A stretch of DNA of 64,000 nucleotides from the NCBI GenBank assembly GCA_965248695.1, contig CBDFKD010000002.1:2144001-2208000 (forward strand), written 5' to 3'. The position numbers and the translations under genes are program-made. Positions 42,577 to 45,709 of the stretch are shown here, in pieces. Position 1 is the stretch's first letter. Each line of letters opens with the position of its first letter. Source of the DNA: Acidobacteriota bacterium (GTDB lineage: Bacteria; Acidobacteriota; UBA890; WLXD01). A model generated the notes under the pieces. The model made no database searches and was not told the origin of the DNA. It worked only from the letters and a program-made list of their open reading frames with translations.

Positions 42577-44759
42577 ACGCACGGGCCGCCGGCGTCGGGG
42601 TGCTCGCCGTCATCGCTGCCGGCTGCGGCGCGCGGGGGGATCCGATGGCGCCTCTGCGAACCGTCCCGCCGTCGCTGCTCAGCGCCGAGATTTCACAGCT
42701 CGGTACGAACGCCCTGGTGGAATTCACTCCATCGGCCGAGATCATCGACATGGGCAACGAGGAGGAGATGACCATCGAGCGCGTGGAGCTCCTGATGCTC
42801 ACCGAGCGATACCCTGCACTCACTGCGTCGATGCTGGCGCAAGGGCTCGATCGAGAGCGGGGTAAGCGCCTCGAGATAGGCCGTCGGGCCATCGAACTGG
42901 CGGCGGAGGGCGCCGAGGCGAGGCGCGTTGCGGAAGAGCGGCTCGCGGCTGAAGAGGCAGCCGCCGCCGCGGGCATCGAGCTACCACCGGAAGTGGAATC
43001 GGACGACGAAGAACCGCTCGAGGAACAGGAGCCCGTTTCTGCCGAGCAGCTCTTACTCGACGGGCTGCCGCGCAACGCCTTGCGCGAATGGAGAGAAGCC
43101 AGCATCCAGGGCGATATCCTCCTGGAGGCAGCGGGGTGGTTCGACGAAGCGGTGGACGACCTGTGGGACCTACTCGGAATGCCCACCGCGATCGTCGACA
43201 CCCGACGGCCGCCGGCGCTACCGCGGCCGTCGCTGGTGGTCGAGAAAGCGGCGCAGCTAGCGCGCACGCACCCGTACGAAGGAGGCCTCGAGATCCCCGA
43301 GTTCCTTACCCGCGCCGCGATCGTTGCCGCTATTCCCTTCGAGAACATCAGCGACTACGTGCTCGACGACAGGGCAAGGATTCACTACAACATCGGCACC
43401 TCTTCGAGCGGCCCGGTGCGGACGCGATACTACTTTGCCGTTCGCGCCGTGGACACCGAGGGGAGAGCGGGCAGCGTCGACACCATCCTCTCTCTCGCAC
43501 CGAGCGGCGTACCCCTGTCCCCGGCGGAGCTGGAGGTCGAGATAACTCCCGAAGGCCCCCGGCTCCGGTGGTCGGCACCGGCGGGCGATGTGTGGGGCAG
43601 CCTCATCGACACCGACGAGATCAGCTACAACATCTACCGTCGGAACGTCGGTGCAGAGATTGCGGCCGTGACGATACTCAACGACGAACCGCTCACTACC
43701 GCCGAGTATCTCGACTCCGGGGCGGAATGGGACGGTAGCTATATATACGAGGTGCGGGCGGTCGCGGCGGCCCCGAGCGACGACGAAACGCTGTTACTGG
43801 TCGAGCCGGATCCTATCCAGGCAGTGCTGGACCCGGCGGACCCGACAGCGCTCGTGACGGACTCTGCGACACCGACTAAGGAAAGCAGCGGCGCGGTGAC
43901 TCCGCCGGTACACGTAGTGGACACGTTCAAGCCGGAGAAGTTGGGCGGTCTGGTGGCGGTGCGCGCGGCGTCGCGAATCACACTGCGTTGGGTGGCGTCG
44001 GCAGTTCCCGATCTGGTGGGCTATCGCGTCTACCGCCGGACGCTGGTGGATGACCCCTGCGACCCACGGTACATGCTCGAGTTCGACGAAGAAGAGGCGG
44101 AGGCGACGACAGACGAAGAGATGGACGACGAGGCGAACGCGGCGGCGGATGACGAAGCGGCGGATGGCGAGGCGGCGGATGGCGAGGCGACGGATGGCGA
44201 GGCGACGGATGGCGAGGCGACGGATGACGAGCCGGATTGCACCGTCGTCGAGGCCGGACCCAATGCCGAAGCACAGCCTTCCGTTGAGGACGAAACGGCC
44301 GGCGACGGGGTCGACACGGGATCCACCGACGCTGATATCGCTGAGGATCAGGCAGGTATTGTGGACGACGCCGGCGCGGCGAACGCCATTGTCGACGCGT
44401 CTGACGACGATCTCGACTCCTCGGCAAATCGCCCGTTGGGCGCCGAGGATGCCGACCTCACCGACGAACCCAGCGCCGAGAACCGCGGCGAAGAGGGCGG
44501 GACGGACGACACACAGGAGGCCGACGACGAAGGCGAACCCGGCCGGGGCAACGCGCGCCGGCGGCGCGGCAATGAACTGGTCACGACCGGATGGGACATG
44601 CTGACCGTGGTGGCGATAAGCGGCGTGCGCTACACGGATCCGACCGCCGACGGGGACGAGGCGTGGGAATACGCCATCGAAGCCGTCGATACCGCCGGCA
44701 ACGTCAGCCCGCCCGCCGTCATCAAGGTGCGGACCGAAGACGCCGCTGACGAGCAATGA
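42573..44759 (+). CDS. Large acidic lipoprotein with LptM/YifL-like N-terminus and fibronectin type III-like domains
   Basis: AAGC lipobox then [11 protein letters not shown]3-like segments LRW..P..YNIYR..Y.YEVRAV, GYRVYR and [13 protein letters not shown]. Confidence 0.7.
44142..44231 (+). repeat. 15-bp tandem repeat x6 encoding A(A/T)D(G/D)E
   Basis: GCGRCGGATGRCGAR, six contiguous copies. Confidence 0.9.
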
Positions 44760-45709
44760 GCGCTGCGAGCCGTGAACCTCTCGAGTTCAGCCACTACTCC
44801 GGAGCGGGCAATGACTTCATCGTCCTCGACGAACGCTACGGCGCGTCGCCGACCCGCGCCGCCGCCAACGCCAAGGCACTCTGCCGCCGAGGCGTCTCCG
44901 TCGGCGCCGATGGACTCATAATGATCGACCTGAGCGACCTGGAGAACGGCGTCGCGGGACGCATGCATCTGTGGAACTCCGATGGGTCAGCGGCCGAGTT
45001 CTCGGGGAACGCGGCGCGATGCGCGGTGCGCTATCTGGTCGACGAGGGACTGGCGAGCTCACCGATACGATTGGAAACTGCCATCGGAATCGTCGTCGGG
45101 CGCGTCGAGGGCTCGAACGTATCCGTCGACGTGCCCGGTACGGCGGCGGTCTGGCCTCAGCGGCGTATTCGCGTTGAAGGCCGGGACCTCCTGGGAACTT
45201 ATGTCCAGGTAGGTGTTCCTTTCTTCGTCCTCCTCCATGAGGATCCGGACGACCTCCCGGTACGTTACTTGGGGCGCGCCATCCGCAACCATCCTGACCT
45301 CGAGCCGGCGGGCGCGAACGTCGACTTCGCTCGTATCGACGACGAGCAGAACCTCTACTTTCGCGTCTATGAGCGCGGCGTCGAGGCCGAGACGCTGAGC
45401 TCGGGAACCGGCAGTATCGCCGCGGCGCTTGCGGCGGCGGCGAGCGACCGCGCTGCCTCACCGATTGCGTGCCATGCAAGGGGCGGCACGCTCACGGTGC
45501 GCTTCCAACCCCTTGTTCCGCCTGCAGTCGAGGCAACGTCGATCGAGAATCCGCCGCTGCCAGCCGAGCCGCCGGCAGTTGAGCGCCCGCACCGCGCCGA
45601 TCTACCGCGCGTTGCCGAGGGCGCTCCGCTTCGATTCGCAAACATACAGCTGGAGGGCGACACTCGTCAGGTGATGCGCGGGACCGCCTTCGCGGACGCG
45701 CTACGGTAG
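44756..45709 (+). CDS. dapF: Diaminopimelate epimerase family protein with Ser at both catalytic Cys positions
   Basis: GAGNDF, VGADGLI, NSDGS.AEFSGN, GANVDF, RVYERGV..ETLSSGTG and GG.L.V motifs. Confidence 0.88.
   Translation: MSAASREPLEFSHYSGAGNDFIVLDERYGASPTRAAANAKALCRRGVSVGADGLIMIDLSDLENGVAGRMHLWNSDGSAAEFSGNAARCAVRYLVDEGLASSPIRLETAIGIVVGRVEGSNVSVDVPGTAAVWPQRRIRVEGRDLLGTYVQVGVPFFVLLHEDPDDLPVRYLGRAIRNHPDLEPAGANVDFARIDDEQNLYFRVYERGVEAETLSSGTGSIAAALAAAASDRAASPIACHARGGTLTVRFQPLVPPAVEATSIENPPLPAEPPAVERPHRADLPRVAEGAPLRFANIQLEGDTRQVMRGTAFADALR

Follow-up and report, generated by a model that had tools for sequence, protein, structure and literature searches.

Introduction

Diaminopimelate (DAP) epimerase, DapF, serves cell-wall and lysine synthesis and is an antibiotic target. 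It is also the textbook example of a cofactor-free enzyme in which a thiolate abstracts an alpha-proton of very low acidity. The subject of this study is a dapF-family gene, with the protein product P0001, located in a 64,000-nucleotide stretch of DNA (the window) from an Acidobacteriota bacterium (assembly GCA_965248695.1, contig CBDFKD010000002.1, positions 2,144,001 to 2,208,000), in which both catalytic cysteines of the family are serines. The sequence-only reading of the window had treated such an enzyme as a new idea, but the kind has been in print since 2025: a 2026 article in Proteins (PMC13728532) credits Lamer et al. (J Mol Biol 437:169375, 2025) with the identification of DapFs that have the same fold but use a pair of serines for catalysis. 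Citing Lamer et al. 2025, the same article describes Anabaena sp. YBS01 as having two DapFs, one of them Cys/Cys and the other Ser/Ser; the Ser/Ser enzyme lost its activity when its serines were changed to cysteines, and the serine dyad may help against oxidative stress (PMC13728532).

P0001 shares with these published enzymes serine at both catalytic positions of the DapF fold. It differs from the Anabaena Ser/Ser DapF, which coexists with a Cys/Cys DapF, in being the product of the only DapF-family gene of its genome. Its clade belongs to the subfamily with GVPH and YERGVExET motifs and has additionally lost a His and a Thr, traits that may also set it apart from the enzymes of Lamer et al. 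Canonical Cys/Cys DapFs (EC 5.1.1.7; 9MRO, 8QZY, 3EJX and H. influenzae 1GQZ) have in common with P0001 the family scores, the two-domain fold, nine of ten ligand residues and a housekeeping locus linked to xerC and hslVU, whereas P0001 carries Ser83, Ser216, Phe156 in place of His, Val204 in place of Thr and an insertion of about 45 residues. Two laboratory mutants of H. influenzae DapF, C73S and C217S (2Q9H, 2Q9J), both among the Foldseek matches to P0001, have serine at one catalytic position. Each carries a single engineered change in a Cys-adapted site, with slow catalysis, whereas in P0001 both serines are natural, their neighbours are co-adapted and the gene is under purifying selection.

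A further point of comparison is the Fusobacterium nucleatum 'DapF', a histidine racemase (HisR) from an organism without a DAP pathway (PMC11602996). Like P0001, it is a DapF-family protein of a genome in which DAP/lysine biosynthesis genes were not found; HisR, however, is Cys/Cys with a remodelled, negatively charged pocket for histidine (PMC11602996), whereas P0001 keeps the DAP-binding residues. In other bacteria DapF2 is a confirmed DAP epimerase of the pyridoxal phosphate (PLP) type, and an E. coli dapF deletion grows but secretes DAP (preprint 10.1101/2024.10.14.618325). On balance, the gene studied here probably encodes a working Ser/Ser DAP epimerase, the housekeeping dapF of an acidobacterial order, inherited vertically at its ancestral locus.

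Serine dyad and its conservation

P0001 carries the motifs AEFSGNAARC, with Ser83, and ETLSSGTGSIA, with Ser216. In phmmer alignments against three solved DapFs taken as references, all Cys/Cys (Anabaena 9mro, P. aeruginosa 8qzy and A. thaliana 3ejx), the two serines fall exactly on the catalytic cysteines of MCGNG and ACGTG. Coordinates, frame and alignment all agree with the placement of TCG serine codons at both catalytic positions in the sequence-only reading (Table 1).

A word-indexed protein search listed 120 proteins, the best 107 of which (E <= 7e-50) form one group. Among these best 120 matches, all 102 full-length homologues at E <= 3e-74 are Ser/Ser, the five fragments in the group have Ser at each motif that they retain, and the 13 matches ranked after the group are all Cys/Cys, following a jump in E from 1e-74 to 1e-48 among full-length matches. 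With one representative per 50% cluster, the Ser/Ser group shrinks to five entries, below which the score drops from 324 to 173 bits.

Across a phylum sample of 401 genomes (a tally that includes three unpublished genomes, none of which any conclusion depends on), matches at a threshold of at least 55% identity were confined to the query's order, the gene being found in 10/10 genomes of the query's family (f1) and 11/15 of the sister family (f2). The variant, suspected earlier to be lineage-wide, extends through the whole order, with the gene in 21 of 25 other genomes in addition to the query's own, and the four genomes that lack it are 69-86% complete. All 22 order loci have Ser at every motif present, together with Phe156; one of them (L093) is truncated ahead of Val204 and the second Ser. 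The codons at the two Ser positions are exclusively TCN, and all four TCN codons occur across the 22 loci.

Region 44600-45800 of the window is covered by contigs of four public runs with zero differing letters, these runs representing one sample that is possibly the assembly's own source. The initial judgement that a single-base error is unlikely is borne out by the 102 of 102 Ser/Ser homologues, by the exclusive use of TCN codons and by these contigs, within the limit of their single sample. The ratio of nonsynonymous to synonymous substitution rates (dN/dS) is 0.05-0.19 over 15 informative pairs, the 16th pair being saturated, with values of 0.05-0.13 within genera g1 and g2 and of 0.11 and 0.17 for the two informative f2 pairs. 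The gene is under purifying selection.

Family membership and predicted fold

P0001 is a DapF-family protein by its profile scores, reaching 183.1 bits against TIGR00652 (DapF; cut-off 114.65) and 104.1 bits against PF01678 (cut-off 34.7), the latter over two domain stretches. The AlphaFold2 model, with a 60-sequence alignment as input, has a mean predicted local distance difference test (pLDDT) score of 93.1 and a predicted template modelling (pTM) score of 0.89, its weak part being limited to residues about 251-280 (block means of pLDDT 63-77). In a Foldseek comparison of the model with the PDB, the top matches are all DapFs, the best being 9mro_A (E 7.4e-25, template modelling score 0.84 on the target, 26% identity in the structural alignment), and proline racemases, PhzF and CntK rank far below. 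The model thus predicts the pseudo-symmetric two-domain alpha/beta DapF fold for P0001.

By sequence search of the PDB, DcsC (7vdy, 73.8 bits) scores below the best DapF (9mro, 101.3 bits), and CntK reaches E 0.91. Other DapF-fold racemases (HisR/CntK, proline racemase, O-ureidoserine racemase, PhzF) were considered as identities for P0001 and rejected, since its best sequence and fold matches are DapFs and the DAP-binding residues are kept. Searching a protein atlas with P0001 returned generic DapF clusters only. Among 18 PDB sequences at E up to 10, none is labelled as a natural Ser/Ser DapF, the entries other than the three references being, by name, previously described DapF-fold proteins or mutants. 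A plasmid tblastn for the published Ser/Ser DapFs gave 44 records, with no cyanobacterial one among those listed.

Binding and active-site residues

Residues were compared between the 102 full-length Ser/Ser clade proteins and 151 Cys/Cys relatives; of 14,632 representatives of DapF homologues, the analysis covered the best 150. Four conserved columns differ between the two sets: C83S, H156F, T204V and C216S. Position 156 is His in 150/151 Cys/Cys relatives and Phe in P0001, and position 204 is Thr in 142/151 and Val in P0001. The lost His is one that we take to be part of the canonical DapF catalytic surroundings. Additional residues are specific to the clade, among them H161 (98% versus 0% in Cys/Cys proteins) and C239 (100% versus 11%), along with Y14, W73 and F202.

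The residues that bind DAP in the Anabaena DapF (9MRO) are N13, N66, G76, N77, N164, N197, E215, R216, G225 and T226 (PMC12039745). Nine of these ten are kept in P0001, where N13 corresponds to N19, N66 to N74, G76 to G84, N77 to N85, N197 to N188, E215 to E206, R216 to R207, G225 to G217 and T226 to T218. The sole difference is Val154 at the position of N164, where most of the Cys/Cys relatives (139/151) have Val as well. The cradle of backbone NH groups for the carboxylate, formed by G-N and G-T, is invariant. The claim that the other DapF motifs are intact is right only in part, as it misses two changes specific to the clade next to the dyad, the His of G-x-P-H being Phe156 and the Thr preceding Y-E-R-G being Val204.

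Cys89 of the AARC motif, proposed in the sequence-only reading as a possible real catalytic residue, is present in 100% of the 102 Ser/Ser and 99% of the 151 Cys/Cys proteins. It was rejected as a substitute nucleophile and is not a replacement catalytic residue, because the Cys/Cys DapFs conserve it just as well. Cys43 is likewise conserved in Cys/Cys DapFs as in the Ser/Ser clade, and no Cys specific to the clade appears to stand in for the dyad. The insertion in the C-terminal domain differs in length among clade members, whose proteins range from 285 to 393 amino acids.

Phylogeny and separate origins of the dyad

The trait columns were masked for every tree. Proteins of the order group in a single clade, with support of 99 and 100 in the Shimodaira-Hasegawa-like approximate likelihood ratio test (SH-aLRT). 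The division of this clade into f1 and f2 mirrors that of the genomes, G153 taking the basal place in f1, a protein-tree pattern that indicates vertical descent within the order. The DapF family as a whole splits (SH-aLRT 99) into a subfamily with GNPH and WERGx-GxT, carrying a one-residue deletion, and a subfamily with GVPH and YERGVExET, lacking it. The query clade is placed in the no-deletion subfamily, among Cys/Cys proteins.

Five more acidobacterial DapFs are Ser/Ser, from genomes G034, G017, G044 and G032 (families f18, f27, f29 and f34) and from a Bryobacterales metagenome-assembled genome, and they form a clade of their own (SH-aLRT 97) in the deletion subfamily. They share phylum, dyad and protein family with the query clade, yet have GNPx and WERGx-GxT with the one-residue deletion, which the query clade lacks. 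Forcing all 15 Ser/Ser rows together in a quick tree cost 65 log-likelihood units (p-AU 0.00275 in the approximately unbiased test). A single shared origin is thereby rejected, so that the dyad became Ser/Ser at least twice, and the sequence trees point to an origin in the query clade that is independent of the other acidobacterial Ser/Ser DapFs.

Mixed dyads also occur. Representatives outside the clade comprise 151 Cys/Cys, 4 Cys/Ser (P0131, P0139, P0155, P0201) and 3 Ser/Cys proteins (P0145, P0163, P0165). Other Acidobacteriota of the no-deletion subfamily have Cys/Ser DapFs (G012, locus L094; G030 and G060, loci L097 and L098), in which position 156 is Phe or His, position 204 is Ile and a Cys follows the second dyad position at a distance of four residues (GTGC); these may be intermediates or a third solution. 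One Cys/Cys representative, P0129, already has Phe at 156 and Val at 204. In G036 (family f30; L138/L139) the only DapF-like gene found falls below the TIGR00652 cut-off (64.7 and 26.1 bits), with altered motifs around Cys/Cys, and is possibly another diverged DapF-fold enzyme.

Copy number and genomic locus

PF01678 matches this gene alone in 22 of the 26 order genomes, the other four, 69-86% complete, having no match. A second DapF-family gene was found by this profile neither in the query's own genome nor in any of the 26, and ddh over cut-off was found in 0/26, the own genome included. The search for a second Cys/Cys dapF or a ddh gene, recommended in the initial reading, thus returned neither.

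The genes preceding dapF are topA, trmFO, a TlpA/ResA-like oxidoreductase gene, xerC-like, hslV, hslU and a 728-residue open reading frame (ORF), and the features nearest to dapF are collected in Table 1. hslU lies upstream in 5/5 order loci with 6-kb flanks. The 728-residue ORF, which ends in a 4-base overlap (ATGA) with the dapF start, is the immediate upstream neighbour of dapF in 20/20 order loci, and also in 5/5 loci of a named collection that are probably from the same genomes as five of the 20. Its product has a lipobox-like N-terminus, a conserved Fn3-like core (residues about 159-502) whose atlas neighbours are acidobacterial Fn3 proteins, long acidic repeats rich in D/E/A/T/G and a conserved C-terminal stretch of 60 residues. 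Downstream, a homologue of the convergent 602-residue ORF is present in 14/20 order loci with 1.5-kb flanks and in 5/5 with 6-kb flanks. Ten loci from outside the order were compared: a weak Fn3-like ORF precedes dapF in L099, L008, L094 and L095, and in L099, whose dapF is Cys/Cys, hslU is upstream as well.

The shared order of hslU, Fn3-like ORF and dapF, together with the sole PF01678 match, marks the gene as orthologous by position to the housekeeping dapF and altered at its original site, not as an additional paralogue. In E. coli a small lipoprotein gene precedes dapF, which is linked to xerC, and the linkage of dapF, xerC and a lipoprotein gene may be very old.

Two observations concern the locus itself. 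The 728-residue ORF is translationally coupled to dapF throughout the order. Within window positions 34727-42576 on the plus strand, topA, trmFO, xerC-like, hslV and hslU stand in that order, presumably matching the topA-gid-codV-clpQ-clpY cluster of B. subtilis.

Table 1. Position, strand and basis of assignment of the features at the dapF locus (window coordinates; aa, amino acids).
Feature	Position	Strand	Basis
xerC-like recombinase	39479-40528	+	NCBIfam XerC 319.7 bits, below 335.15 cut-off
hslV	40580-41125	+	NCBIfam HslV 253.2 bits
hslU	41179-42576	+	NCBIfam HslU 611.3 bits
728-aa ORF, lipoprotein-like N-terminus, Fn3-like core, acidic repeats	42573..44759	+	ORF; no Pfam/NCBIfam match
dapF-family CDS, Ser/Ser variant (P0001)	44756..45709	+	single ORF, 317 aa, intact frame
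Ser83 codon TCG, first catalytic Cys position (Cys75 of Anabaena DapF 9MRO)	45002..45004	+	in frame; alignment
Phe156 codon TTC, His position of G-x-P-H motif	45221..45223	+	comparison with 151 Cys/Cys relatives
Val204 codon GTC, Thr position of R-T-Y-E-R-G	45365..45367	+	comparison with 151 Cys/Cys relatives
Ser216 codon TCG, second catalytic Cys position (Cys224 of 9MRO)	45401..45403	+	in frame; alignment
Pro-rich insertion, residues about 252-297, between last strands of C-terminal domain	45509..45646	+	alignment gap versus solved DapFs and Cys/Cys relatives
Convergent 602-aa ORF, no known family	45701..47509	-	overlaps dapF 3' end by 9 bases; no Pfam/NCBIfam match

DAP and lysine pathway context

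The sister family f2 and G153 have an operon with dapB, a dapD-like gene and an aminotransferase gene, which also includes dapA in G094 and G153 and, in G153, an ArgE/DapE-like deacylase gene. Genomes G094, G106 and G153 contain dapA, dapB, the dapD-like gene, the aminotransferase gene and lysA, and G002 has the same set except that its lysA match holds one TGA. The Ser/Ser gene is the only DapF-family candidate for the epimerase step in these four genomes, because no other DapF is found there. Across the order, dapB occurs in 12/15 f2 genomes and 1/10 f1 genomes (G153, at 110 bits, below the 122-bit cut-off), dapA over cut-off in 10/26 genomes (G153 and nine of f2) and the dapD-like gene in G153 and ten f2 genomes. 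Six sister-family genomes (G055 and G265 of genus g7; G175, G185, G215 and G285 of genus g9) have dapB and mostly dapA and the dapD-like gene with no lysA match, G055 being 95% complete; the g7 and g9 organisms may make DAP for the wall while importing lysine.

The query's own assembly (5.89 Mb, two contigs, 96.4% complete) presents a different inventory. There, neither TIGR00036 nor PF05173 detected a dapB, searches for ddh, lysW and DapL were negative, and tblastn with same-order DapB and DapD gave no match. No dapA scored over cut-off, tblastn with DapA finding only paralogues of 26-29% identity, and the lysA-like gene of this genome (256 bits) lies below the lysA cut-off and is 25% identical to the LysA of G153. 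The same absences recur in genera g1, g2, g3 and g5 of f1. With dN/dS of 0.05-0.13 within g1 and g2, selection maintains the dapF-family gene in genomes in which the remaining pathway genes were not found.

The genes flanking lysA in G153 (L114) correspond to orthologues of 48% identity in the own genome, separated there by 73 bases that hold no lysA (G000:C2:4915188-4917189), as if lysA had been lost cleanly. For the dap operon no comparably clean scar of a deletion was found, the flanks of the G153 operon being scattered in the own genome, unlike those of lysA. As a separate observation, the own lysA-like decarboxylase gene lies in L067 (G000:C2:296000-314000) at about 8293-12337 on the minus strand, two genes from a PLP enzyme and with an IS256 transposase nearby. 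The best families of this PLP enzyme are PRK07324 (an uncharacterised aminotransferase), followed by guanitoxin GntC and capreomycidine synthase VioD, all below cut-offs. The lysA-like gene and the PLP enzyme may form a small specialised-metabolism cluster and not serve lysine synthesis.

The DNPR motif marks a DAP-adding MurE. It is present in 20/21 order genomes with the locus recovered, the own genome included, the 21st being cut by a contig end. A recycling route through murein peptide ligase (Mpl) is unsupported, as no Mpl over cut-off was found in the own genome, where the best match is the dcw-cluster ligase (188.9 versus 388.7 bits).

Proposed activity and alternative explanations

In the favoured account, that of a working Ser/Ser DAP epimerase, both catalytic cysteines have been replaced by serine and the neighbouring His and Thr by Phe and Val. 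LL- and meso-DAP would most likely still be bound through the unchanged binding residues and be interconverted through the usual 1,1-proton transfer with two bases. Acid and base would be the two serines, each at the N-terminus of a central helix, in the manner reported for other natural Ser/Ser DapFs (PMC13728532); their hydroxyls would exchange the alpha-proton in a pocket that Phe156 and Val204 render less polar. For the sister family and G153, the gene would fill the only gap in a pathway of dapA, dapB, dapD, aminotransferase, dapE-like gene and lysA. In the own genome, in which that pathway was not found, scavenged or imported DAP would be what the enzyme converts for the DAP-type MurE, and salvaged DAP is probably its substrate in the window's own family. 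Among the options listed in the sequence-only reading, a Ser/Ser epimerase, perhaps oxidation-resistant, matches the active natural Ser/Ser DapFs described in PMC13728532, and nothing found points to a scaffold role or a different substrate.

Several points weigh against this account, in which catalytic competence and the use of P0001 are what we infer. The conserved His and Thr beside the dyad are lost as well, removing polar groups that might otherwise activate serine, and engineered Cys-to-Ser changes in DapF-fold racemases are reported to hinder catalysis (PMC11602996, PMC12039745). lysA over cut-off is present in G153 and in only 4/15 f2 genomes, and is thus patchy even there. With dapB, dapD, an over-cut-off dapA and an orthologous lysA not found in the own genome, a classical biosynthetic role is not evident in it. 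The hole in the pathway could instead be filled by a PLP-dependent enzyme resembling DapF2, Ala_racemase_N matches numbering 2-7 in 25 of the 26 order genomes; these paralogue counts do not separate f1 from f2 and neither support nor remove this rival. The epimerase activity of the clade is predicted, and its enzymes may differ from the published Ser/Ser ones.

A changed substrate or reaction appears unlikely. The pocket would in that case be DAP-like but receive another diamino-dicarboxylate, for example lanthionine or a peptidoglycan-derived compound, or would catalyse an elimination or a one-way conversion. Such departures have precedents in the histidine racemase of F. nucleatum (PMC11602996), in plant and cyanobacterial DapFs that also epimerise lanthionine (PMC12039745), in an Asp/Glu racemase made one-directional by one Cys-to-Thr change and in Cys-to-Ser mutants of glutamate racemase that catalyse eliminations (PMC8142540). 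P0001, however, retains the residues for both ends of DAP, also at the distal amino and carboxylate groups, on which specificity for DAP depends, and a positional orthologue of the housekeeping dapF with no extra paralogue is not what this alternative leads one to expect. Purifying selection in the window's family, though dapA, dapB, dapD and lysA were not found, and the many clade-specific residues (H161, C239, Y14, W73, F202 and others) speak for it; the pathway-complete relatives, which have no other DapF, speak for the DAP epimerase.

E. coli DapF also activates RppH. Solved DapF-RppH complexes (6d13, 6vck) are in keeping with a non-catalytic P0001, a DAP-binding sensor, regulator or scaffold, with a PLP-dependent racemase epimerising where needed, but no partner was identified in this analysis and we regard this role as decidedly improbable. 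The loss of both thiols and of the neighbouring His and Thr while the binding residues stay would fit such a role, as would retention of the gene in genomes without a found pathway, the hindered catalysis of the Cys-to-Ser mutants cited above, the Ala_racemase_N matches and the existence of DapF2 in other bacteria (10.1101/2024.10.14.618325). Yet the catalytic positions are always Ser, never Ala, Gly or Thr, in 102/102 proteins, and the use of all four TCN codons for an invariant Ser argues for selection on the hydroxyl itself; the G-N and G-T carboxylate cradle is invariant too, and the published natural Ser/Ser DapFs are described as active (PMC13728532).

A sequencing or assembly artefact or a decaying pseudogene, for which nothing speaks beyond the oddity itself and the origin of the supporting contigs in one sample, is refuted to the point of near certainty by the intact frame, the same residues in 102 independent homologues from several data sources and in the 22 order loci, the dN/dS of 0.05-0.19 and the high-confidence model.

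Significance

Taken together with the Ser/Ser epimerase favoured above, the findings allow a broader account that we put forward tentatively and hold to be possible but doubtful: the Ser/Ser dyad would have evolved at least twice in one phylum, in two DapF subfamilies, with Cys/Ser forms persisting in neighbouring families, and the f1 enzyme would have outlived its whole pathway under strong purifying selection, passing to salvage, in which LL- or meso-DAP taken up from outside is converted for a DAP-type MurE, or to a second, non-biosynthetic function. The separate Ser/Ser origin in a second subfamily, the natural Cys/Ser forms and the retention of the gene without a detectable DAP/lysine pathway may be new.

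The natural Ser/Ser DapFs described in PMC13728532 show that thiols are not obligatory, and the query clade would add a second, independent route to Ser/Ser in another subfamily. The His-to-Phe and Thr-to-Val changes, together with the living Cys/Ser forms, would give a natural series for how serine is made basic enough. For annotation, such genes stay dapF, and the presence of dapF alone does not imply a lysine pathway. A soil-type acidobacterium of 5.9 Mb that needs DAP for MurE appears to be without DAP/lysine biosynthesis and keeps an epimerase, making DAP scavenging directly testable in this organism.

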